Origin: Shigella phage Sf17
DNA length: 64,000 bases
Sequence record: MF327004
Reading direction: 5' to 3' (one strand)
Made by a program: the position numbers and the translations under genes. Shown here in pieces: positions 15,229-57,614 of this stretch (positions are counted from its first letter, which is position 1; each line of letters opens with the position of its first letter). A model generated the notes under the pieces. That model worked only from the letters and a program-made list of their open reading frames with translations. It had not been told where the DNA came from and did not search any database.

Positions 15229-15423
15229 ATGCCAACCATTCTAGCAATCCTCATGAAAAACCTTGGGGCATTCTTTTGGAAGCTTCTTTTTTCTCTTCTC
15301 AGTGAATACATGATTGAAAAAGTGTTCTTTAAGCTTGCAAGATACCTTGCGAGTAAAACAGATACACCTATTGATGATGAATTTGTAGATACCTTGGAAA
15401 AGGCTTTTAAAGGTGAGAAATAA
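15229..15423 (+). CDS. small protein with hydrophobic N-terminal segment (possible membrane protein)
   Basis: 64-aa ORF with own promoter and GGTGA SD; N-terminal ILAILMKNLGAFFWKLLFSLL. Confidence 0.4.
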   Translation: MPTILAILMKNLGAFFWKLLFSLLSEYMIEKVFFKLARYLASKTDTPIDDEFVDTLEKAFKGEK

Positions 15424-15797
15424 TGAAGTGGCTTGAAGATGCTTTTAAGAATAATATTGGTGCAATCGTTGTAGGTATTTTCAGTGTAATTGGTATGTAC
15501 ACTACAATGCAGGTCTCTGATGGTAAACAGGAAGTGTCTATCACAAATAAGTTACAGCAGTTGGATGGTTACTCAAAAGGTAACTATTCAGCTATTCGTG
15601 ACTTACAATCTGATATGAAGCTCCTACAATTAGGGATGGAGAACCAGAAAGTTCAGCTAGAGAATGTTAAGGGAGAAAACGCTAAGTTGACTAAGACCCT
15701 TGATAAGTTCTCTGACAGTGTTAACAACTTAGCACAATCTGTATCAGCTTTGCAAGCAATTACAGAACAAAATACCCAAAGCACTAAAAAGAAATAA
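15423..15797 (+). CDS. membrane-anchored coiled-coil protein
   Basis: 124 aa; N-terminal hydrophobic helix IGAIVVGIFSVIGMYTT then heptad-like region; start overlaps previous stop. Confidence 0.4.
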   Translation: MKWLEDAFKNNIGAIVVGIFSVIGMYTTMQVSDGKQEVSITNKLQQLDGYSKGNYSAIRDLQSDMKLLQLGMENQKVQLENVKGENAKLTKTLDKFSDSVNNLAQSVSALQAITEQNTQSTKKK

Positions 15798-22859: not shown

Positions 22860-23113
22860 TTACGTTTCCCACCAATTTCTACATCAATAACTTGTGTGTC
22901 TCCACAAACATCAAACTTATGAATGATATTCTCTACAGTGTAAGTCCAACCATCAATCCTTACCCATTCACCTTCTCGTGGCACTATTGGGTTACGTTGT
23001 GCTACAGTTGTAGTTGAGTGAACAACGTCATACTTATAGATAAAATTTACCAGAACCTGCATATCAATATCCTCCATCAAAAACTGTGGTGTGTGACTGA
23101 CTATTCTTCCCAT
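22856..23113 (-). CDS. hypothetical protein
   Basis: 85-aa ORF, start overlaps ligase stop. Confidence 0.4.
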   Translation of the reverse strand: MGRIVSHTPQFLMEDIDMQVLVNFIYKYDVVHSTTTVAQRNPIVPREGEWVRIDGWTYTVENIIHKFDVCGDTQVIDVEIGGKRK

Positions 23114-23309
23114 ACTTGTAAGAAGTTGTAGTCTGAGAATTTGGGCAGCGAACTACAATAACATCCCTGCTAATGGCATCACCATTAAGCTTATAAATCT
23201 TGCAGTCTTGCATTTCTGGAGGAAGTCTGTAAGAGGCATCCTTATTCTCATAAGAAGGGTTGCACCCCACCAGTAAGACTACTAAAGCTGGTATCAATAA
23301 TTTTAACAT
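23064..23309 (-). CDS. putative lipoprotein
   Basis: 81 aa; MLKLLIPALVVLLVGC with lipobox LVGC then Cys-containing mature part. Confidence 0.5.
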   Translation of the reverse strand: MLKLLIPALVVLLVGCNPSYENKDASYRLPPEMQDCKIYKLNGDAISRDVIVVRCPNSQTTTSYKYGKNSQSHTTVFDGGY

Positions 23310-23319
23310 TTTAAACCTC

Positions 23320-23571
23320 TCAATAAAATAAGTCTGAAGCTTTTGAATTTACAGGATTCAAAGAACCTTCGTAATGTTCTTCATAACCCTCTTGGCAGAT
23401 ATTATACAGTTCTTTGAATCGGGTTTCATCAACTGGTTTAACATCTTTCTTAGCGCATAAGAAGAGATACCAATCATACCCCAAATCCCTGCACCAAGCC
23501 TCTGAGACAAAAGCTATTGATTTGTCTTCGCTCTTGAAGATTGCTAAAGCTTCTTGCTCTTTATTGCTCAC
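23320..23571 (-). CDS. hypothetical protein
   Basis: 83-aa ORF, co-oriented. Confidence 0.4.
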   Translation of the reverse strand: MSNKEQEALAIFKSEDKSIAFVSEAWCRDLGYDWYLFLCAKKDVKPVDETRFKELYNICQEGYEEHYEGSLNPVNSKASDLFY

Positions 23572-23782
23572 GATACTCTACCTCTCTAAAAGTTTTATGG
23601 TAATAGATTTTGTAGTAAGCTATCTCGTTACTTTTAACATTTGTTTTAAGAAGAGTCCAGTCATAACCTTCACCAACTCTTCCCCAAATGCTATAAAGTT
23701 TCATTAAAGATACTCCATCCAGTTTTCTGCCAAGGTTCCCCCTTGTACCATGCAGCCATTGGGTAACCCATTTCACATACAA
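23561..23782 (-). CDS. hypothetical protein
   Basis: 73-aa ORF; overlaps ORF 23691-23897 by 92 nt, internal ATG at 23704 would reduce overlap to 14 nt. Confidence 0.35.
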   Translation of the reverse strand: MYVKWVTQWLHGTRGNLGRKLDGVSLMKLYSIWGRVGEGYDWTLLKTNVKSNEIAYYKIYYHKTFREVEYREQ

Positions 23783-23897
23783 CCTTTCCGTCTTTTATTT
23801 CAAAGAACTCATCAGATGTGAAATTTTCATTTCGAACTTTCTTGCCCTGTTTCATAGCTTCGAGAGCTTCTTCGTATGTCATTTTTGGTGTCTCCAA
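23691..23897 (-). CDS. hypothetical protein
   Basis: 68-aa ORF, co-oriented. Confidence 0.4.
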   Translation of the reverse strand: METPKMTYEEALEAMKQGKKVRNENFTSDEFFEIKDGKVVCEMGYPMAAWYKGEPWQKTGWSIFNETL

Positions 23898-24346: not shown

Positions 24347-27046
24347 TTAGTGGACTTCAAGCCACGATTTACCAACTTTCCCTGCACCTGTGACCAATGT
24401 CTCTTTTCTTAGCCCAAGGTTCTTAGATGCTTGACCATAATACCAGTCAGTTACTGCTTTCACATCTGCTGTCATGCTCTCTGGACATTCCCAGCTTGTT
24501 TCATCGTGGTAAGCACAGAGTAAGCGAGCACCAATAGCTGGTTTACGACCATTCAACTTCATCAAACCTTCGTCAATCATACGACGACATGCAAGGTTGA
24601 TTGCTTCATTCTGAACTTGTGCTTCTGAACCCATCAGCAAATAGTTCAAGAGTTTGTGTGGAGACTTACACCACAGCCAAGCCCCAGCAACCTTCACAAA
24701 ACCACCTTTAGAGATTGCAGCAGTTTTACCAAACACCTCTTCAAGTGCTTTCTTAGTTGCTTTGAAATCAGCTTCCAAGTTGTCTAACAGTTTCTTAATC
24801 TTCGGCAAACGCACAAAGTAAGTCTGCTTAGTCAATGCACCTTCCTGAGTAGTTGCTGCTTTAATTGTCTTGGCAAACTTCTCATCACCTGCACCGAACA
24901 ACAAAGCATAGATACCATTCTTAGCTTTCTTACGTCCCTTGCTAATCTCATGAAGAAGATTCTCATCCTGAGTAGCACGACAAGTCAAGATATCTTGCTC
25001 ATCATTAAGGCTGAAGTAGATACTGTTCAGAGTGTGAGCATCAGTCCCTGAGTAAACTACGTACAAATCGTTTTCAGAGTCGTAACGCAGATACTTGTCA
25101 ATCTCTGGATTCAGATACTGGTCAAAGTGTTTACAGTAGTATCTTCCATCCTCTTGACGGACAAACTCAATCTCTTCTTTACCCTCTGTTACCGCTTTGG
25201 TGAAGTCTTTATCACCCATGAAGTTACAGAGTAGTACAAGCTGTGCAGAGTTCATATCAACAGATACTACGTTGGTTCCCTCTTCACAAATCCACACTGC
25301 CCTCATTGGCTCACCGTACACGGCAGCACCAGAAGGTACGTTTACAATACCATACTGAGTCATACGTCCAGTAGAAGTACCAAACACCATTGCACCTGCA
25401 CTCAAACGACCATCTGGACGAATCTGGTTCAGCCAACCTTTCTCATCATCCTTTGAGTTCTCAATAGTCCTGCGTCGGTGCATCAAAGTATAGTACTTCG
25501 CAATCTTCTGTCCAAGCTCACCTTCGATTGTATCATAAGAAGACTCTGTAAGCTTTGGTGAAGTCCTAATCAAGCAAGGCTCAAGCACATCTGTGTACTT
25601 CTTAACAGACCAGTTATGCTCAATGTAATAGACACCTTCATGCTCAATGTAATTCAATCCACAACGTTCAACCATCTCATCCCACTTAGGATGTTTGCGA
25701 ATCATCTTTTTGTTGTCTTTGAATCTGCAAACCTTGATAGGACGACCATCAGAATCTTTTTTATAGTTCCAATCATCAGGAATCCAACCAACGGATTTTA
25801 AGTAATCCTTCACCACAGCTACCTGAGTCATTCGTGAAACTTCAAACTCAATTGGTGTGAATGGTGCATCAATCAAACCAGTGTAGCGACTAGACTCTAA
25901 CTCAAAGTGGTTAACAACGTGAACATTGTAGTACTTCACAGTTTTCACAGTCTTAACTGGCTTCCAATCTTTACACTTCTTGCCAATCTTCTCATTCAGT
26001 TCATTACAAACTGCACGAGCATCTTTCATTGCTACAAAACCTTCAGGGTACTCTTCTTTTGTGACCGTGTTAGTTGGAGTGTAGCAGTTGCGTTTCTCAA
26101 CATTAAAAATCTTTGTAGTTGGCTTACCATACGGCTTGATAGGGTACTGCTTCAACTCGCCTTCACGCATCTGTTCACGATACTTTGTCTTAGGGTACTT
26201 GGTAATCCTTTTTAAACCGTCAACGTGACCAAATGTATCTACATACTCATTCCAAGACTTGGCAAATTCTTCACCTGTGACTTTACCTTTTGTCTTAATA
26301 GTTGGTGGAAGGTGTGGTTCAACCTCAGCAGCCAACTCATTAGTTAACTTGTCAAGCTCTTTAACGTGGAACTGCATAAGCTCTACATCAGCTTTCCAAC
26401 CGTTGATAGCTTGCTGACTCATCCAGAAAGATGTTTCTTTAGCTCGCATGTAGGTTTCATAAGTGTCAACACCACACTTCTTAAGCTTGAGGTACTCATT
26501 ATCAAGAGCACGTTTAGTTTTGGCGTTAATCTTAATATCTTCTACAACACGAGTAAGAATCTCTGCATTCCAGACACCCCACTCTTCAATCTCTGGTTTA
26601 CGGACACCTACACGAGCACCCCATGCAGCCAAACCATGAGCACCTTTGTAACCTTTTGGTGTAGGTCTATCCATCCACTGTACGCGAGATTGGATAAGTG
26701 AATCCTGAAAGAAGTCACCCCAAGGCTTACACTTAGGATTCTCAAAGTTCCACAGGTCAGGTGCAATGTGATTAAACACCCACCAGTCATAACCAAGACC
26801 ATTATGGATACAAAGACGTTTAGCTTTCAGTGCAAACTCAACCCCTTCACGCAGACCACCTTTGATGTACTTCGTGTACTTGTGACCAAGGATAGGCTCA
26901 TCAGTGAACACCCACACAGCAGGTTCGTCACTGTCATCTTTATAGTCTGCGAAAGCCATTACGTGTGCTTTTGTAAACTCAAGGAGCAACCCATCAGTTT
27001 CTGTATCACCAACCAAATGTAATTTTTCGAAATCTACATTGTCCAT
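24347..27046 (-). CDS. DNA polymerase, family A (T7 gp5-like)
   Basis: 899 aa; Exo I motif GDTETDG near N-terminus; polymerase segments GRMTQYGIVNVP, DMNSAQL, ALLFGAGDEKFA, AYHDE parallel T7 DNA polymerase. Confidence 0.85.
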   Translation of the reverse strand: MDNVDFEKLHLVGDTETDGLLLEFTKAHVMAFADYKDDSDEPAVWVFTDEPILGHKYTKYIKGGLREGVEFALKAKRLCIHNGLGYDWWVFNHIAPDLWNFENPKCKPWGDFFQDSLIQSRVQWMDRPTPKGYKGAHGLAAWGARVGVRKPEIEEWGVWNAEILTRVVEDIKINAKTKRALDNEYLKLKKCGVDTYETYMRAKETSFWMSQQAINGWKADVELMQFHVKELDKLTNELAAEVEPHLPPTIKTKGKVTGEEFAKSWNEYVDTFGHVDGLKRITKYPKTKYREQMREGELKQYPIKPYGKPTTKIFNVEKRNCYTPTNTVTKEEYPEGFVAMKDARAVCNELNEKIGKKCKDWKPVKTVKTVKYYNVHVVNHFELESSRYTGLIDAPFTPIEFEVSRMTQVAVVKDYLKSVGWIPDDWNYKKDSDGRPIKVCRFKDNKKMIRKHPKWDEMVERCGLNYIEHEGVYYIEHNWSVKKYTDVLEPCLIRTSPKLTESSYDTIEGELGQKIAKYYTLMHRRRTIENSKDDEKGWLNQIRPDGRLSAGAMVFGTSTGRMTQYGIVNVPSGAAVYGEPMRAVWICEEGTNVVSVDMNSAQLVLLCNFMGDKDFTKAVTEGKEEIEFVRQEDGRYYCKHFDQYLNPEIDKYLRYDSENDLYVVYSGTDAHTLNSIYFSLNDEQDILTCRATQDENLLHEISKGRKKAKNGIYALLFGAGDEKFAKTIKAATTQEGALTKQTYFVRLPKIKKLLDNLEADFKATKKALEEVFGKTAAISKGGFVKVAGAWLWCKSPHKLLNYLLMGSEAQVQNEAINLACRRMIDEGLMKLNGRKPAIGARLLCAYHDETSWECPESMTADVKAVTDWYYGQASKNLGLRKETLVTGAGKVGKSWLEVH

Positions 27047-42410: not shown

Positions 42411-42425
42411 ATTGGAGATAATAAA

Positions 42426-42608
42426 ATGTTGAAAATTGGCAAGGTTTACCTTTTCGTTGCAGGAAAGTCTAATCGCACACTTGAGGCTGTCCTCAAACAT
42501 GTATCTGAAAATAAATACACTGTGTCTTGGCAAGGTTCTAATGGGGTATGGTATGACGAGGACTTAACAAAAAACGTTTGGAAAGTGTATCAAGAGGTCA
42601 CAGCATGA
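42426..42608 (+). CDS. hypothetical protein
   Basis: ATG 42426 preceded by GGAGA SD (track start 42387 lies within terminator); about 60 aa. Confidence 0.4.
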   Translation: MLKIGKVYLFVAGKSNRTLEAVLKHVSENKYTVSWQGSNGVWYDEDLTKNVWKVYQEVTA

Positions 42609-48349: not shown

Positions 48350-48577
48350 GTGGAGAATGATATGAGATTTAACACGGATTTATTTTATACAGATAGCACT
48401 GGATTTTTTGGTGGATATTGTGTAGCATCTTGGCAATTATGGTTCTCAGAAGAGTACAGGGGTGATATGCAGGTTTTTGTAGAAGACTATAAGTTCCCTG
48501 CAAAACCTACTAAACGCCAGATTAGAAAGCTTCGCAGAGAGTTTCGTAAAACTTGCAAAGGGATTAACAGGCTATGA
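48350..48577 (+). CDS. hypothetical protein
   Basis: 75-aa ORF with GTG start after GGAGAATGA; basic C-terminus. Confidence 0.35.
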   Translation: MENDMRFNTDLFYTDSTGFFGGYCVASWQLWFSEEYRGDMQVFVEDYKFPAKPTKRQIRKLRREFRKTCKGINRL

Positions 48578-49132: not shown

Positions 49133-51505
49133 ATGCGCATGGTAAATGACCACGCAACGGTAATTAAAAGCTCAAGTACACTGGAAACCTCTCAGGCTCA
49201 GATTAAGATGACACCTGAAATGTTCAGTCTTCTAAGCTCAGGTGTTTACACATATAAAGAACGTGCTGTAATTCGTGAATTGTCATGTAACGCAGTAGAT
49301 GCTCACATTGATTCTGGTAACGTTGATAAACCTTTCTTGGTTCACTTACCAACTCGTTTCGAGCCATTCTTTGAAGTTCGTGACTTTGGTACAGGACTGA
49401 CTCATGATAAAGTTATGAAACTTTACATGACCTATGGAGAATCTACAAAGAACGATTCAAACGACTACATTGGTGCTATGGGTATCGGTTCAAAGTCCCC
49501 ATTTGCAATTGCTCAGTCATTCACTGTATCAAGCTATGTTGATGGTGTAGTTAACAAATACTCAGTTTACCTTGAGAATGGTATCCCTCAAGTAACTAAG
49601 TTGACTACTAACCCAACTACAGAGCCAAATGGTTTAGCTGTTCGAGTAGCGGTATCCGATAACCGTATCAACAAGTTTCATGAAGAAGCGAGCAATGTAT
49701 ACTCGTACTTTAAAGTTAAGCCAGAGTGTAATGTTGAGTACTATGACATTCTTGAAGCAATGACTTCCATTTCTCGTGAAGATGGTGTCTATGATGCAAT
49801 GAAGTACAAAGAGAACTGGCGTTCAAATAGTAACAGTGTCCATTTCAATGTAATCATGGGTAATATTGCTTATCCTGTTGAAATGGGTGAGTTGCTTGGT
49901 TCAGAGTTTACAAGCATTCTGCCTCAGTTCTTCCGTAGTGCTGTAGACCTTGTTAACATCTACATGCCAATTGGTTCAGTGGCTATTGCTGCATCTCGTG
50001 AAGCATTGCAGATGAATGAGACCACTAAGACCAAGATTGTTGAAGCTGTGAAGAAAATCACTAAGACAATCGTAGAAGATGTGGTAAAAGAGATTGCTAA
50101 CAAGCCAACTCTGATTGATGCTGCTCAAGCCTATGATACCATGAGGAAGGAGGCTCGTGAAATCTTTATTCACGTCCAAGATTCTCTGGAATGGCAAGGC
50201 CAGAACTTGAAAAAACTTGAACAAAAACTGTTAGGTATCCGTCGTGGTCAGTTAACTGAAGCAGATGGTTCTCCGTCATTCTTGAAAGATGATGCAGGTA
50301 ACTTGAGGCTTGACAAAGATGGTAATCCAGTTCCTAATATTGGTAATCTGTATGAACCTGTAGCATACTACAAGTACAGCAGTCTGGAGAACCGTATTCG
50401 AGCAACTTCAGCAACTTATTCACAAGATGCAGCAATGTTTAGTATCTTTGGTGCAATGAGTAAAGATAAGTTGAGCAACTATTTGTTCCTTATCAATGAC
50501 CGTCGAAACAAGAACGGGTCTGAGAAGACAACTGGTAAAAACCAGATTATCCGTGGAGCTTGCCGTGACCGTGAACAGGAAGACTCTAACTTCCGTCGCT
50601 ACAACGGTATTGCTTTCTTGTTCAGCAGTCAGCAGCAATTCGATGAGTTTGTAGATTTGCATATGCTTGACAAGAGTCTGTTAAGTGTGCATACAATGTC
50701 ATCTAAAGAGCACCACTATGAGAAACGTACTATTGTACGTGGTGTTGTAAAACTGTATAAAGCATTTATATGTCCAAATACTGACATGATTCGCTATACA
50801 GAGGTTAAAGAGAACTTTGATGAGATTGAAGAACCACAACTGTATATCAAAGCACAGAGTGATGAAGTGATTGGTGGAATCTTCTCATGTTCACCAGAAC
50901 GTGCTGCAACGTTGATGACAGAGTTAACTGGACAGTCAGTTTATGTCTTCCGTAAAGCCAACTGGAAAAAGATTCCTGAAGACTGGACAGAAGTCAATGA
51001 ACAAGTGATGAAAGATTTTATTGATAATACTCATTGGATTGAGTATCACCGTTACTTGACTCACCAATATATGACTAATAATCATGATATCACTGATTGT
51101 AATGTGATTTCTCGAAACTTTATGTTTGCTGATAAGCGTAAGTCCAGAGGCCACATTTACAGTAAAGACTTTAAGAAGACTATTTTCTTAGAGGGGAATG
51201 AAGAGGCTATAGAAGCAATGTTTGGACGCTTGGCATATACTGCTGCACCAGTTGCTTACAAAGATATTACCAGCACTCTTGATACCATTCGTAGGAATAT
51301 GAGAGGTTCTTGTAAGCCAAGAAAGGTTCTGGATAATGCTAAGAAGCGTCTTGAAAGCAAGTTCAAAGATTACTTTGAGAAACGCCGTAAAGAAAACTTC
51401 TTGCTTTCTAATCTGGATTGGAATAAAGTATCACCAGTCGAAGTTGGTAAGTTTTTAGGTTTTGACACTAAGAGCATTCCAGAAGATACTGTATGCTGGG
51501 ATTAA
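49133..51505 (+). CDS. rIIA: rIIA-like protein
   Basis: 790 aa; N-terminal GHKL-ATPase-like motifs RAVIRELSCNAVDAH, RDFGTGL, IGAMGIGSKSPF parallel T4 rIIA. Confidence 0.8.
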   Translation: MRMVNDHATVIKSSSTLETSQAQIKMTPEMFSLLSSGVYTYKERAVIRELSCNAVDAHIDSGNVDKPFLVHLPTRFEPFFEVRDFGTGLTHDKVMKLYMTYGESTKNDSNDYIGAMGIGSKSPFAIAQSFTVSSYVDGVVNKYSVYLENGIPQVTKLTTNPTTEPNGLAVRVAVSDNRINKFHEEASNVYSYFKVKPECNVEYYDILEAMTSISREDGVYDAMKYKENWRSNSNSVHFNVIMGNIAYPVEMGELLGSEFTSILPQFFRSAVDLVNIYMPIGSVAIAASREALQMNETTKTKIVEAVKKITKTIVEDVVKEIANKPTLIDAAQAYDTMRKEAREIFIHVQDSLEWQGQNLKKLEQKLLGIRRGQLTEADGSPSFLKDDAGNLRLDKDGNPVPNIGNLYEPVAYYKYSSLENRIRATSATYSQDAAMFSIFGAMSKDKLSNYLFLINDRRNKNGSEKTTGKNQIIRGACRDREQEDSNFRRYNGIAFLFSSQQQFDEFVDLHMLDKSLLSVHTMSSKEHHYEKRTIVRGVVKLYKAFICPNTDMIRYTEVKENFDEIEEPQLYIKAQSDEVIGGIFSCSPERAATLMTELTGQSVYVFRKANWKKIPEDWTEVNEQVMKDFIDNTHWIEYHRYLTHQYMTNNHDITDCNVISRNFMFADKRKSRGHIYSKDFKKTIFLEGNEEAIEAMFGRLAYTAAPVAYKDITSTLDTIRRNMRGSCKPRKVLDNAKKRLESKFKDYFEKRRKENFLLSNLDWNKVSPVEVGKFLGFDTKSIPEDTVCWD

Positions 51506-52715: not shown

Positions 52716-52731
52716 TAAGTAAATTCCTAAA

Positions 52732-52756
52732 GGGGCTGCTTCGGCAGCCTTTTTTA
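52732..52756 (+). terminator. rho-independent terminator (UUCG tetraloop)
   Basis: GGCTGC-TTCG-GCAGCC followed by T6. Confidence 0.6.
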
Positions 52757-52757
52757 T

Positions 52758-52785
52758 TTGAAAAATGTGCAGGTTAGTGTATAAT
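52758..52785 (+). promoter_or_regulatory. sigma70-type promoter TTGAAA-16-TATAAT
   Basis: Consensus -10 TATAAT; spacer contains TGTGCAGGT, the core of the 56.9-57.2 kb repeats. Confidence 0.5.
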
Positions 52786-52816
52786 TGTCTGCATGTTTAA
52801 CAAAATAGGAGTGCAA

Positions 52817-53365
52817 ATGAAGAAATTTGTTTTAGGTTTGTGCTTATTCTTTACAGCACATTTAGCTACAGCATCTGACTGTCCAGAGCTTACAATCAGC
52901 CAGAAAGTTAATATGTTAAAAGCATATAACTATGGCGAAGGGCAGATGGGAAAAGGTTGGGGAATCCCTTTAGCAGCTATAGCCTTACAAGAGTCACAAT
53001 TAGGTGTCATGTTAGAAAATAAAAAGACTCATGATTATGGTGTTTTCCAGAATCACTTGAAGACTGTTGTAAAGCGTAACAAGGTATCTCCAAAGGTTGC
53101 TAAGAAGAAGCTAGTAAGTGACTTCCATTACTCAGCGAAAGAGGCTCATAAGGAGCTATTATTCTGGACTAAGGTTCATGGTAACCCAGATGGAAAGTAC
53201 TCTATGAAGCGTGTCCTAGCTTCTTATAATGCTGGTTACAAATACAAGATTCCAAAGGCTAGACAATACTCTCAAGATGTGTACAATAACATGAAACTGC
53301 TGGCTCAATGTGAGTTTGCAACAAACATTAAAAAGGTAAAATATGAGCGAATCAAAACAATTTGA
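52817..53365 (+). CDS. lytic transglycosylase-like protein with signal peptide
   Basis: ATG 52817 after AGGAG; signal-peptide-like MKKFVLGLCLFFTAHLATA; motifs ALQESQLG, YGVFQ, SYNAG resemble lytic transglycosylase catalytic region. Confidence 0.45.
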   Translation: MKKFVLGLCLFFTAHLATASDCPELTISQKVNMLKAYNYGEGQMGKGWGIPLAAIALQESQLGVMLENKKTHDYGVFQNHLKTVVKRNKVSPKVAKKKLVSDFHYSAKEAHKELLFWTKVHGNPDGKYSMKRVLASYNAGYKYKIPKARQYSQDVYNNMKLLAQCEFATNIKKVKYERIKTI

Positions 53366-54038
53366 TATGGTTCTGTGTCATGCTTATGATATTAAGCCAC
53401 TTGATTTAGATATCAGTTCTGCAAGTTGGTCAGATATTGCTAAAGCTGACTTTGCAGATACAGCAAGAGATGTTGTGTGTAGCTTTGAAGACTTCCACTC
53501 AACAAAGACACAGATTCCTTGTCAGGATTTGCTAACAGGTAAAACTGTATATGTTGGTCGTAACAGCCTTATCTTGGTTGCAAAGAACTTGGAAGAAAAA
53601 CGTAAAATGGTCTTAGCAGACATTGATGGTGTTCTTACAAGTTTTGACAAGAAACTTAATGCAACTTTGTTAGATGATGGTACTTACTCACAGTATACTA
53701 ACTTGGTAGACTCTCGCAGAGCTAAACCAACATATGTTTTTAACATTCTGTGTGGTATATCAAGAAATGCTGATATAGGATTCTTAACTGCTCGTGGTGA
53801 ATCACAAAGAGTTGTCACACATCTTTTCCTGAATGAGAATGTAGACAGTGATTTCCTACTGTTTATGCGTGGATTTGGTGACAATGAGATTAGTGCAGAA
53901 AGTTTGAAAGTTCGTATGCTTCAGTCTTGCATTCTACCTTACTATGATGTAGTATGCTTTATAGAAGATACAGTGAAGAACGTGGAGAAGGTTGAAAGAA
54001 TCTTACCACACATCAAAACAATGCTTGTTAAAAACTGA
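53343..54038 (+). CDS. HAD-superfamily hydrolase-like protein
   Basis: 231 aa; motif LADIDGVLT (DxDG[TV]) typical of HAD phosphatases/nucleotidases. Confidence 0.4.
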   Translation: MSESKQFDMVLCHAYDIKPLDLDISSASWSDIAKADFADTARDVVCSFEDFHSTKTQIPCQDLLTGKTVYVGRNSLILVAKNLEEKRKMVLADIDGVLTSFDKKLNATLLDDGTYSQYTNLVDSRRAKPTYVFNILCGISRNADIGFLTARGESQRVVTHLFLNENVDSDFLLFMRGFGDNEISAESLKVRMLQSCILPYYDVVCFIEDTVKNVEKVERILPHIKTMLVKN

Positions 54039-54049
54039 GAGAGTAAACC

Positions 54050-54514
54050 ATGCAAAACATTATTACAGTAGCTATCGATGCTTCCGGTAACAAATCACAG
54101 GTAGTTCGTGAGATTATCAAAAGTAATTTCGATGGTAAAATCTTTCGTGCAGTAAACGTGAAAGCTGATGGTAACATTCGTGAGTATCGTGCAATGTTGA
54201 ATGTCACAAAACACGTTAAGGGTGTTGGTTCAACTACTGCTCATAAAGAAAATCTGATGACTATCTATGATATGGGTATGGCTTCAGAGTTAGGTGCAAA
54301 AGGGATTGTACAATCCGGTGCTCCTTACCGTTCTTTCAATCTGGAAACTGCTCTTATGCTTTCCTTTACAAGTGGTTCTCAAACTACCACTTACCTCTTC
54401 ACAGATACTGCAACGGTTTCTGCGATTAAGGACAATACCATTAAGGCTGGCGTAGCTGCTGCTTCAAAAGCCTCAACAATGGCAGCAAATGTCCTTGCGA
54501 AAGTTCTTGGTTAA
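54050..54514 (+). CDS. hypothetical protein
   Basis: 154-aa ORF followed by terminator; N-terminus ITVAIDASGNKSQVV. Confidence 0.4.
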   Translation: MQNIITVAIDASGNKSQVVREIIKSNFDGKIFRAVNVKADGNIREYRAMLNVTKHVKGVGSTTAHKENLMTIYDMGMASELGAKGIVQSGAPYRSFNLETALMLSFTSGSQTTTYLFTDTATVSAIKDNTIKAGVAAASKASTMAANVLAKVLG

Positions 54515-54525
54515 AGTTATTATAG

Positions 54526-54548
54526 AGGCTCCTTCGGGAGCCTTTTTC
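54526..54548 (+). terminator. rho-independent terminator (UUCG tetraloop)
   Basis: AGGCTCC-TTCG-GGAGCCT followed by T5. Confidence 0.6.
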
Positions 54549-54566
54549 ATTTCTAGGAGAAGTTAA

Positions 54567-54914
54567 ATGACGTTTAAAGAATTTTGTCAAGCAGCTTTTG
54601 TAATCATCTTCTTAACAGGTGTTGGTGCTTGGGGAGGTTACACTTACAAGACCAGCCAAGTTAATGAAAAGGAGCTAACTAACCAGAGACTGGTAAGTGT
54701 TGCTAAAGATGCTTATCAAGAAGGTTTATCAAATCTTAGCTCCAATTACAAAAATGATTTGAAAGATGTGCTTGCTAAAAACAAACACACCAAAGAGGTA
54801 TTGAACTATGAAAAAACTAAGACAGTCTTTATTAATGATTGTGCTACTGAGCCTTATGTCAGGGTGTTCAACGAGCAAAGTGAGCAGTACCTTCAAAAAC
54901 TCCCAAGTAAGTGA
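54567..54914 (+). CDS. putative i-spanin (inner-membrane spanin subunit)
   Basis: 115 aa; N-terminal transmembrane segment AAFVIIFLTGVGAWGGY then charged helical periplasmic part; o-spanin-like lipoprotein gene starts inside it in another frame. Confidence 0.45.
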   Translation: MTFKEFCQAAFVIIFLTGVGAWGGYTYKTSQVNEKELTNQRLVSVAKDAYQEGLSNLSSNYKNDLKDVLAKNKHTKEVLNYEKTKTVFINDCATEPYVRVFNEQSEQYLQKLPSK

Positions 54915-55077
54915 GAGTGACAAGTACACTCAAGAAGAAGCACGATATGAGGTTAAAGGCACTAAAGGTGCAGACCTTGCAAGTGCTCTTGAGTTTTATC
55001 GTGATGGTTACTATGAATGTACTATTAAGGCAAACAATTTGATTGATATGATTTTGTTAGGGAATAAGCAGCAATGA
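54808..55077 (+). CDS. putative o-spanin (outer-membrane lipoprotein subunit)
   Basis: 89 aa; MKKLRQSLLMIVLLSLMSGC lipobox (MSGC); starts within the i-spanin gene (+1 frame) and extends beyond it, with AAGAGG SD. Confidence 0.45.
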   Translation: MKKLRQSLLMIVLLSLMSGCSTSKVSSTFKNSQVSESDKYTQEEARYEVKGTKGADLASALEFYRDGYYECTIKANNLIDMILLGNKQQ

Positions 55078-55343
55078 CAGAGAAGAATGAAACATTTTTT
55101 GTGGAAGGTTATCTTCTGTTACCAAGACCAAGTAACACTTACATGAGATTTGACATTATGCCAACGGTTATGGATGATGTAACTTGTCACATCTTTATGC
55201 AGGGTGTTTCTGCACAACTTAAACATGTTGGAAGAGATTGCAAAATACGTGTTGACAACCATCCTGAAATCAACGAGAATCACTACACATGGTTCGGAGA
55301 AGATTCTAAAGAAATCTATGCAGTCCTTAAAACGAGGAAGTGA
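55074..55343 (+). CDS. hypothetical protein
   Basis: 89-aa ORF overlapping previous stop. Confidence 0.4.
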   Translation: MTEKNETFFVEGYLLLPRPSNTYMRFDIMPTVMDDVTCHIFMQGVSAQLKHVGRDCKIRVDNHPEINENHYTWFGEDSKEIYAVLKTRK

Positions 55344-55352
55344 GGTTTAGTG

Positions 55353-55679
55353 ATGCAACTAGATGGTAAGAATTATGTAGCCGTCTTTTCAGACGGTGAG
55401 AAAGAAATTGGTACAGCACAAGTCTGTCACAGTGGTAAAGAGTTTCTCTATGGGGTTGTTGCATTCATTGGTACTCGTGGAGATATGAAGTCTTTTAAAG
55501 ATTGTGTTGACAAGCTTGAAGAATCCATAGAGAATCATTGGTGTCTGATATGGCTTAATGCAGAGAATGTTAAAGAACGCTATGCAAAAGTTGGTATCCA
55601 TATTGAAAGCATCGAACATGTTGACCTGTTTGAGCTAACTGAAAAGGTGATGTATGAAAGCAATTCTGGTAAGAAGTAA
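55353..55679 (+). CDS. hypothetical protein
   Basis: ATG 55353 after GAGG (track start 55350 is GTG); about 108 aa. Confidence 0.4.
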   Translation: MQLDGKNYVAVFSDGEKEIGTAQVCHSGKEFLYGVVAFIGTRGDMKSFKDCVDKLEESIENHWCLIWLNAENVKERYAKVGIHIESIEHVDLFELTEKVMYESNSGKK

Positions 55680-55914
55680 AGTTACACGTCAAGTATTAGC
55701 AGGGGCTATATTTGTTGGAAGGGATGAGGTGATGCCATTTGGTTCACGAATCTATAAAGGTTCTGTACTATCACATAGCCACTTTAAGGCTGGTGATTTT
55801 TGTCACTATATTAACAGGGGCTATCTAAGAGAGGAACTTGGATATTGGAAGACCCGCATTAAGGAAAGATACGGTGACAGAGTATTCTTACAAGAGGTAA
55901 TTTCAAATGGCTGA
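55654..55914 (+). CDS. hypothetical protein
   Basis: 86-aa ORF with AAAGGTG SD. Confidence 0.4.
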   Translation: MKAILVRSKVTRQVLAGAIFVGRDEVMPFGSRIYKGSVLSHSHFKAGDFCHYINRGYLREELGYWKTRIKERYGDRVFLQEVISNG

Positions 55915-56107
55915 TTTCTGCACTAAGTGTTCTGTTGAGATGTTTGGAAAAGATACAGGAGACTTAAAAGGTCTCTTTACAAAAGCAGAGTTTGAAGCTG
56001 GTTCAGCAATGCCAGTAATCTGTGAAGGCTGTGGTGCTTTATGGGTAGACCATGAAGGTAACCGAGTTAAACCCTCTGAAGATAACGAACGTTGGGAGCA
56101 TTACTAA
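55907..56107 (+). CDS. small Cys-rich protein (zinc-ribbon-like)
   Basis: 66 aa with CTKCS ... CEGCG cysteine pairs. Confidence 0.4.
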   Translation: MADFCTKCSVEMFGKDTGDLKGLFTKAEFEAGSAMPVICEGCGALWVDHEGNRVKPSEDNERWEHY

Positions 56108-56108
56108 T

Positions 56109-56903
56109 ATGGGTATCGTAAAAATTATTAAAGGTGATATCTTTAAAGACTTTGATGGTAAGAAGTTTGATATCATTGGTCACGGTTGTAACTGCATGAA
56201 CTTGATGGGTTCAGGTATCGCAGCAACAATTGCTAAACGCTACCCAAAAGCTTATGAAACTGACGCTGAGGTTTATGCTACAGTAGGTGGTGAAAATCAT
56301 AACCCTAAGCACCTAATGCTTGGTAACATCTCTGTAGCACGTTTTAAGCAGGGTCGGATTGCTAACCTTTATACTCAGGTTATCACTGGCAAAGATGCAC
56401 GGTACAATGCTTTAGAAGCAGCTTTGCAGCGTCTGAATAATTACTGCAAAGTCAACCAACTTAAGAAAGTTGGGCTTCCTATGATTTGTGCAGGGATTGG
56501 TGGTCTTGATAGTATGGCTGTGCTGTCCATTATTAATCAGACTATGAAAGATGTTGACGTATATATGTATGTCTATGAAGATAAGATGTACAGTCAGTTG
56601 ACTAGTCCTGTTACTGGTTGGGAGAACTTCAGTGAGCCTCAATATTTTGATGGTGTTGCTGTGGTAGGCAAGGATAAAGTTACCCTCAAGGTGAAGCGTA
56701 ATGGCAAGGTACACACCAGTTACCCTCCGGTTGAGAAGTACAATCGAAGTAACGCTCAAGTTACCCACCCGTTACAAGGTCACCACCACAGAGCGGTAAC
56801 GTTTGGTGATGATGCAAGTGTGTATATCAATGCGACTACAGAAGAGTTTGCAGAAGATTATATCACACATGAAAACGTAAACTATGTTGAAGCACGTAAC
56901 TAA
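56109..56903 (+). CDS. macro-domain protein (Poa1p-like ADP-ribose-phosphate phosphatase family) with C-terminal extension
   Basis: ATG 56109; motifs KGDIFK, DIIGHGCNC, GSGIAATIAKRYP, GLPMICAGIGGLD parallel yeast Poa1p (IHSCNC ... GGGIAYQLALRYP); about 100 extra C-terminal residues. Confidence 0.5.
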   Translation: MGIVKIIKGDIFKDFDGKKFDIIGHGCNCMNLMGSGIAATIAKRYPKAYETDAEVYATVGGENHNPKHLMLGNISVARFKQGRIANLYTQVITGKDARYNALEAALQRLNNYCKVNQLKKVGLPMICAGIGGLDSMAVLSIINQTMKDVDVYMYVYEDKMYSQLTSPVTGWENFSEPQYFDGVAVVGKDKVTLKVKRNGKVHTSYPPVEKYNRSNAQVTHPLQGHHHRAVTFGDDASVYINATTEEFAEDYITHENVNYVEARN

Positions 56904-57407: not shown

Positions 57408-57614
57408 ATGTTATATCAACGTGAGTTAATGATTGTTGACAACAACAAAACAAATAAACGTCGTTTCTATATGCTAATTTGTGATGTTTGGCAACGTATC
57501 TCAGAAAAGGATTTTGATGAATATGTTGATACGTCAATCAGGTCTGATTGTTATTTGACAACTCATACAAGACAGTTTACAAGGCATACAGCAATTTATT
57601 ATTATAACGTTTAA
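57408..57614 (+). CDS. hypothetical early protein
   Basis: 68-aa ORF behind conserved leader/SD CTGGAGAATCTAAAAATG. Confidence 0.45.
   Translation: MLYQRELMIVDNNKTNKRRFYMLICDVWQRISEKDFDEYVDTSIRSDCYLTTHTRQFTRHTAIYYYNV

Follow-up and report, generated by a model that had tools for sequence, protein, structure and literature searches.

Small, specialised lytic transglycosylases are known from bacterial secretion systems, where EtgA of enteropathogenic Escherichia coli (EPEC) has further counterparts in IpgF, IagB, VirB1 and P19. Among phages, the signal-anchor-release (SAR) endolysins P1 Lyz and phage 21 R, like the Sec-secreted Lys44 of phage fOg44, each serve their phage as its only endolysin, together with a pinholin or holin. 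In phage T4, loss of the e lysozyme abolishes lysis although vs.1 is intact. Orthologues of vs.1 match the SLT (lytic transglycosylase) domain marginally and were suggested to have 'some role in cell lysis' (Nolan et al. 2006); this 2006 comparative-genomics note was all that we found on vs.1 in the literature, with no functional study among the results. For the last lysis step, a pair from phage Felix O1 is listed among the overlapped two-component spanins, and one or more periplasmic cysteines occur in 507 of the 528 catalogued spanin pairs (Kongari et al. 2018). Here we analysed 64,000 nucleotides of Shigella phage Sf17 (sequence record MF327004; this whole stretch is called the window below), from a Mooglevirus (Ounavirinae, Felix O1-like myophage), in which an initial annotation had picked out one open reading frame (ORF) for a secreted SLT-like protein and two overlapping ORFs for an inner-membrane and an outer-membrane spanin (i-spanin and o-spanin). 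All three ORFs were recovered, at the coordinates given in Table 1. The joint reading that we favour, at a probability of about 0.8, is that the spanins are real and that the SLT-like protein is an exported transglycosylase of the Vs.1 family which is not the main endolysin, the Vs.1-type gene and the spanin pair being two unrelated, previously annotated features that lie side by side.

The ATG of the SLT-like ORF was preceded by a strong Shine-Dalgarno sequence, AGGAG, and the signal peptide and E-S, GVFQ and YNAG motifs first noticed in its product are indeed there, at E59-S60 (nt 52991-52996), G75-V-F-Q78 (53039-53050) and Y137-N-A-G140 (53225-53236); these correspond to the Glu-Ser, G-x-x-Q and A/S-Y-N-x-G motifs of family-1 lytic transglycosylases. 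An exhaustive profile search returned 624 cluster representatives of ~160-200 amino acids (aa), and a new profile was built from 101 of these relatives. Residues E59, G63, Y137 and Y151 were invariant in all 101, with S60, G75, W117, N138 and G140 nearly so. The residue after the catalytic Glu was S60 in 97 relatives and Thr in the other 4, G75 was kept in 98/101 together with F/Y77 and Q/H78, and the third motif retained S136 in 90, Y137 in 101, N138 in 93 and G140 in 100. With the 101-relative profile EtgA, a transglycosylase of type III secretion, was matched at E 1.3e-4, the alignment bringing the E-S, G-x-x-Q and Y-N-A-G motifs into register, and Pfam SLT (PF01464, GH23) was matched by 46 of the 101 relatives at E <= 0.001 (best 2.8e-12). 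An AlphaFold2 model of the SLT-like protein had a pLDDT of 79 (88-96 across most of the core), and the top Foldseek matches with this model were all lytic transglycosylases, at TM ~0.5, with a lysozyme-like all-helical fold. The transglycosylase assignment is drawn from this fold and from the wider family profile, because the sequence of the window protein alone is marginal; on the model and the motifs, the protein is predicted to have a family-1 lytic transglycosylase (goose-lysozyme-like) fold with an intact catalytic Glu-Ser. Matches to a designed ankyrin and to PRP4 kinase, returned by sequence searches of the PDB, were spurious and were set aside, the 101-sequence profile and the fold comparison being used instead, and no useful match to the four proteins searched came from NCBIfam.

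The N-terminus of the SLT-like protein (MKK, then FVLGLCLFFTAHL, then ATA/SD, the stroke marking the predicted cleavage site) reads as a Sec signal, with a 17-residue uncharged stretch that has a Leu/Phe-rich core and ends A-T-A/S-D. A positive N-terminus followed by a short hydrophobic stretch was seen in 92-98 of the 101 relatives, the median uncharged stretch being 16 residues. By a heuristic reading the segment does not have the make-up of a SAR anchor, which is long, weakly hydrophobic, Gly/Ala/Ser-rich and without a signal-peptidase site; it looks like a short cleavable signal with an A-x-A site. Of the 101 relatives, which are phylogenetically non-independent, 56 have both Cys22 and Cys165, 41 have neither and 4 have one without the other, and because the two co-vary among relatives they probably form a disulfide in the periplasm. 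Phage SLT domains often reside in virion proteins, and tape-measure and tail proteins were among the weaker matches of the model in BFVD (predicted viral protein structure), as would suit a virion-borne, wall-piercing enzyme for DNA injection like T7 gp16 or PRD1 P7. A Sec signal, however, would take the protein out of the cytoplasm, the site of virion assembly, the protein is small, free-standing and encoded in a non-structural region, and the virion proteome list of Felix O1 does not contain its orthologue, ORF3, so that we regard a virion enzyme as extremely improbable.

By sequence comparison the SLT-like protein is an orthologue of T4 Vs.1. It matched phrog_600 (PHROG 600) at E 3.6e-57 over aa 1-170, and BLASTP aligned it with Vs.1 of phage RB32 (E 2e-14, 33% identity), which has the same signal-plus-domain layout. 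With tblastn the family was found in 1,927 of 50,697 phage records, including T4, T2 and RB32 (where it is labelled vs.1), KVP40 ('transglycosylase SLT domain protein'), Aeromonas, Klebsiella and Acinetobacter T4-like phages and Dickeya Vi1-like phages; in the Felix O1 record, ORF3 is given a note that reads '20.7 kDa protein in vs-regB intergenic region'. Homologues of Vs.1 are labelled RegB endoribonuclease or 'site-specific RNA endonuclease' in FQ482083 (phiEa104), KY942056 (Dickeya JA15), ON645936 (Escherichia N2) and MN106245 (Klebsiella EI), which looks like an annotation error that spread from regB, the neighbouring gene in T4.

As far as seen, the family is confined to large virulent myophages, and a scan of 185,579 bacterial and archaeal genomes with two narrow peptide patterns from an 11-sequence alignment brought up no relatives, which is a weak negative. 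This distribution, the export signal, the host-type promoter and the presence of rIIA/rIIB next door would all suit a non-enzymatic protective factor of the periplasm, the lysozyme-like groove of which binds murein or blocks the tail lysozyme of superinfecting phages and so gives superinfection exclusion or resistance to lysis from without, as a functional analogue of T4 Spackle. We consider such a factor very unlikely: the catalytic Glu (101/101), the Ser/Thr that follows it (101/101) and the invariant or nearly invariant Y-N-x-G and Tyr151 argue for retained catalysis, the protein has no similarity to Spackle, and the genome scan that seems to favour it covered those two patterns only.

The spanin claim of the initial annotation was borne out by architecture, by family match, by conservation and by the earlier curation of the Felix O1 orthologues. 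The i-spanin matched PHROG 1152, 'Rz-like spanin', at E 6.8e-38, and its best 19-residue hydropathy window was aa 6-24 (FCQAAFVIIFLTGVGAWGG) with no second hydrophobic segment, giving a predicted topology of a single N-terminal transmembrane domain (TMD) with the remainder periplasmic. The o-spanin ORF begins within the i-spanin ORF in the +1 frame, overlapping it for 107 nt before the i-spanin stop. Its lipoprotein signal, MIVLLSLMSG/C20, fits the PROSITE-type rule, which was used here because the strict lipobox pattern [LVI][ASTVI][GAS]C misses the o-spanin (Met at -3); such a signal was found in only 2 of the window's 568 ATG ORFs that are 50 aa or longer. Sorting of the o-spanin to the outer membrane is predicted because, under the usual rule, the +2 residue is Ser and not Asp. 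Each partner has its periplasmic cysteine, Cys92 in the i-spanin and Cys71 in the o-spanin, as is usual for catalogued spanins.

The TMD, the lipobox, the Ser at +2, the overlap and both cysteines are kept in five genomes (the window, Michonne, Felix O1, Erwinia phage M7 and phage LPML1). Among the compared Ounavirinae o-spanin identity drops to about 34-42% with the features retained, and because TMD, lipobox, overlap and Cys persist at that level the o-spanin ORF is not a chance reading frame. The i-spanin was found in 290 records of Ounavirinae type and the o-spanin in 298 records. In the Michonne record both are annotated at exactly these boundaries, and the record of Shigella phage Sf19 also annotates the i-spanin. 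The o-spanin of Sf19, gp114, is annotated from an internal GTG (L001 8181-8378, equal to window 54880-55077), which is an annotation error, because a GTG start would delete the signal peptide and lipobox; the ATG of Table 1 is the correct start, as in Michonne and Felix O1. Taken on these predicted features, the pair is a genuine overlapped two-component spanin, conserved across Ounavirinae.

The initial annotation had also offered the SLT-like protein as a secreted or SAR endolysin, which our results do not support. Lysis genes of the canonical kind lie elsewhere. Sf19 gp17, annotated 'lysin' and located outside the window, is a canonical soluble GH24 lysozyme (Pfam Phage_lysozyme E 5.9e-38, PHROG endolysin 6e-55), and the lysin of Felix O1 is gp35, a GH24 enzyme (Whichard et al.). 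The papers on Michonne and Moogle (Center for Phage Technology, CPT) give a lysis set of class-III holin, soluble lysozyme and both an inner and an outer spanin, 'scattered around the genome', in which the SLT-like gene is not included. That no classical holin is adjacent was correctly observed: the holin candidate lies ~37-39 kb away from the SLT-like and spanin genes and is assigned by architecture only, its PHROG having no function label, while the flanking ORFs 54050-54514 and 55074-55343, checked for a holin or antiholin, had neither a TMD nor a match to a lysis family. In window 15229-15797 the holin candidate is directly preceded by a 64-aa ORF with a single TMD, the stop of which overlaps the holin start in an ATGA-type junction; its PHROG has no assigned function, and it could encode an antiholin or a holin partner.

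An endolysin role for the SLT-like protein, either Sec-secreted and held inactive or as a SAR enzyme freed on membrane depolarisation, and acting with the nearby spanins, would draw on the combination of an export signal, a muralytic fold and an intact catalytic Glu, and on spanins lying 1.2 kb away. We think it unlikely, and the protein is probably an accessory enzyme, because a soluble GH24 lysozyme and a holin candidate are already encoded by the phage, and because the signal looks cleavable, the 17-residue uncharged stretch with its A-T-A/S end being typical of cleaved signals. The gene is left out of curated lysis sets, stands behind a sigma-70-type promoter next to rIIA/rIIB and shares its transcript with a phosphatase gene; in T4-type genomes the family gene lies between regB and vs, unlinked to the lysis genes. 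T4 e mutants fail to lyse with vs.1 intact, therefore an enzyme of the Vs.1 type, to which this protein is orthologous, is not sufficient for lysis.

Several findings weigh against the joint reading, some on the enzyme and some on the spanins. The window protein itself scored 18.4 bits against Pfam SLT (E 0.0017), below the gathering cut-off of 21.3, and sequence searches of the PDB, both with the single sequence and with an 11-sequence profile, returned no transglycosylase, giving spurious matches only. In the literature we found no measurement of enzymatic activity, export, cleavage site or phenotype for any family member. Several GenBank records (Sf19 and several Salmonella phages) label the SLT-like gene 'putative lysin' or 'lysin', as an endolysin would be, and the transcript of Felix O1 ORF3 peaks at the 25-min 'middle' RT-PCR point, the same as the GH24 lysin and the i-spanin, although these data are coarse; because the three share one RT-PCR class, timing neither proves nor excludes a link to lysis, and a literature search for Felixounavirus RNA-seq gave nothing relevant. 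The o-spanin, unlike lambda Rz1, has no proline-rich region. The joint reading nevertheless stays the one we prefer, and 'putative lysin' as a label of the SLT-like gene is not to be taken for 'the endolysin', in enzybiotic mining for instance.

Table 1. Positions of the genes and signals discussed, in window numbering.
Feature	Coordinates	Strand	Supporting observations
Holin candidate, 124 aa, class III-type	15423..15797	+	one N-terminal TMD and coiled-coil-like periplasmic domain; Sf19 gp58 annotated holin
Intrinsic terminator of rIIB (GGGGCUGC-UUCG-GCAGCC + U6)	52729..52754	+	fold -15.6 kcal/mol, z -3.76; annotated at the same place in Michonne
Sigma-70-type promoter TTGAAA-16-TATAAT, for the unit of SLT-like, HAD phosphatase and phrog_2267 genes	52758..52785	+	11/12 matches
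Vs.1-family exported lytic-transglycosylase-like protein (putative), 182 aa	52817..53365	+	predicted Sec signal aa 1-19 (nt 52817-52873), catalytic E59-S60
HAD-type phosphatase, annotated 'polynucleotide kinase'	53343..54038	+	phrog_3970 E 1e-127; weak Pfam HAD_PNKP match
phrog_2267 protein, final gene before terminator	54050..54514	+	ORF call and PHROG match
Intrinsic terminator closing the SLT-headed unit (GAGGCUCC-UUCG-GGAGCCUU + U-tract)	54524..54550	+	-14.8 kcal/mol, z -4.36; annotated terminator in Michonne
i-spanin, 115 aa	54567..54914	+	N-terminal TMD ~aa 6-26, periplasmic domain, conserved Cys92; phrog_1152
o-spanin, 89 aa	54808..55077	+	signal II peptide, lipobox LMSG/C20, Ser at +2, conserved Cys71

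The SLT-like ORF had further been credited with its own consensus promoter and terminator, of which the promoter stood and the terminator did not. Sites with at least 11/12 promoter matches numbered only 7 on both strands of the 64 kb window, the one ahead of the SLT-like gene among them, and 3 of the other 6 directly precede rIIA, rIIB and one further upstream gene. The hairpin thought to terminate the SLT-like gene is upstream of this promoter and ends rIIB, and the nearest downstream terminator comes two genes later. Because the rIIB terminator precedes the promoter, the SLT-like ORF overlaps the phosphatase ORF (by 23 nt) and the next terminator follows the phrog_2267 gene, we read promoter, SLT-like gene, HAD phosphatase gene, phrog_2267 gene and terminator as a three-gene unit; the i-spanin ATG lies 17 nt past that terminator. 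The phosphatase product has a DIDGV HAD motif and no Walker A, and its weak HAD_PNKP match spans aa 88-216 only; from its sequence the 'polynucleotide kinase' is probably no more than a phosphatase, and its N-terminal 87 aa are uncharacterised.

For the spanins we propose that the i-spanin would be anchored in the inner membrane through its N-terminal TMD and the o-spanin sorted as a lipoprotein to the outer membrane, and that the two would bind each other across the periplasm; by analogy with lambda Rz/Rz1 and T4 PseT.3/PseT.2 they would then fuse or disrupt the outer membrane as the final lysis step, once holin and GH24 endolysin have cleared the murein. Host RNA polymerase would transcribe the Vs.1-type gene from a sigma-70-type promoter of its own, at the head of three genes beside rIIA/rIIB, and the protein would be exported by Sec, cleaved after Ala19 and joined by its disulfide in the periplasm. 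As the motifs and the fold model suggest, the mature enzyme would cleave MurNAc-GlcNAc bonds to leave 1,6-anhydro ends, and this cleavage may be low-level and non-lytic from early or middle infection, like that of host periplasmic transglycosylases. The protein would thus be an accessory wall-remodelling enzyme, and the endolysin would be the soluble GH24 lysozyme, with the class III-type holin candidate releasing it.

One tentative and at present rather doubtful extension is that the Vs.1-type proteins form a class of 'specialised' periplasmic lytic transglycosylases particular to phages, which large virulent myophages (T4-, Felix O1- and Vi1-like) would export ahead of lysis for some other task. 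A putative disulfide with co-varying cysteines, a Sec signal in nearly all relatives, a catalytic Glu kept without exception and the failure of the two narrow patterns to turn up bacterial homologues are compatible with such a class. Possible tasks are the opening of local murein gaps that let envelope-spanning complexes such as spanins assemble, the trimming of uncross-linked glycan following host shut-off, or an alteration of the wall against superinfecting phages. The question raised is why ~1,900 sequenced virulent myophages retain a Sec-exported transglycosylase besides a classical endolysin. The discovery value is otherwise small: the spanins are textbook, the homology of the SLT-like gene to Vs.1/SLT has been on record since the genome papers of T4 and Felix O1, and the features described here are ordinary and already annotated or published.

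The 2.7 kb around the ORFs was 99.8% identical to Sf19 and 97-99% identical to Sf13-Sf18, the Citrobacter phages Michonne and Mordin and others (all Mooglevirus). Over its whole length the window runs collinear with Sf19, starting at Sf19 position 27025, reaching the end of that genome and then wrapping onto Sf19 1-315; window 23570-23867, 42414-42605 and 48379-48572 did not align to Sf19, pointing to insertions or deletions of ~190-300 bp relative to this closest genome. The rIIA gene is intact in the window (790 aa, 49133-51505), and the Sf19 feature table has no rIIA coding sequence. Directly after rIIA and rIIB, window 52800-56900 holds a run of homologues or analogues of T4 early genes that are scattered in T4, namely vs.1, a pseT-like phosphatase, the spanins (functional analogues of pseT.3/pseT.2) and a Tk.4-like macro-domain protein (~56052-56903).

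Between window 57590 and 62400 a ~90 bp intergenic repeat stands directly before at least 6 small genes of the + strand, with copies near 57612, 58074, 58428, 59030, 60817 and 62306. Its consensus (...AAAGTGCTTTACATGGGGTTTAAAATTTGATAAGATAAGCCCCAGATAAAGAGCTTTACC...CTGGAGAATCTAAAATG) carries a promoter-like pair, TTTACA-N17-TAAGAT, a GGGG/CCCC inverted repeat and a fixed Shine-Dalgarno sequence; on comparison, this promoter/leader element of 57.6-62.4 kb was not shared by the regions upstream of the SLT-like and spanin genes. The only other ORF of the window with a lipoprotein signal, at 23064-23309 on the - strand in the replication-gene region, encodes 81 aa with MLKLLIPALVVLLVG followed by C-N and with four cysteines; it corresponds to Sf19 gp72, 'putative membrane protein', and its product may be a lipoprotein of the superinfection-exclusion type.

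Among described systems T4 Vs.1 is the closest to the SLT-like protein, with which it shares its length (181 and 182 aa), an N-terminal Sec signal, the E-S, G-x-F-Q and S-Y-N-x-G motifs and its encoding by a non-structural gene of a large virulent myophage. T4 Vs.1 lacks the Cys22/Cys165 pair of the window protein, the neighbours are regB and vs in T4 and rIIB and the HAD phosphatase gene in the window, and RB32 Vs.1 scores above the Pfam SLT cut-off (25.1 bits) where the window protein falls below it. EtgA of EPEC and its counterparts are alike in size (~150-180 aa), Sec signal and single SLT domain. Enzymes of the EtgA type, however, have their genes within type III or type IV secretion loci and rely on rod or needle proteins for targeting, whereas the window gene sits in a non-structural phage unit without such a partner, its neighbours being rIIB, the HAD phosphatase gene and hypothetical phage genes; identity was only ~21% over the aligned core, so that the likeness is one of size, signal and fold only. 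With the SAR endolysins and Lys44 the SLT-like protein has in common an N-terminal export segment before a muralytic domain, but the window phage has a separate GH24 endolysin, and the segment of the SLT-like protein is short and ends A-x-A.

The spanins have their nearest counterparts in Felix O1 ORF6 and ORF7, which are orthologues (~75% identity for the i-spanin, 83% for the o-spanin) with the same overlap, lipobox and Cys positions and no difference that matters. Lambda Rz/Rz1 and T4 PseT.3/PseT.2 likewise pair a type II inner-membrane protein with an outer-membrane lipoprotein and have periplasmic cysteines, yet have no detectable sequence similarity to the window spanins, and the genes are overlapped in the window, embedded in lambda and separated in T4. 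As in the window phage, the spanin genes of T4 lie far from those of holin and endolysin. The window o-spanin, which has no prolines and is longer than Rz1, may resemble T4 PseT.2, which has a C-terminal helix (Kongari et al. 2018).

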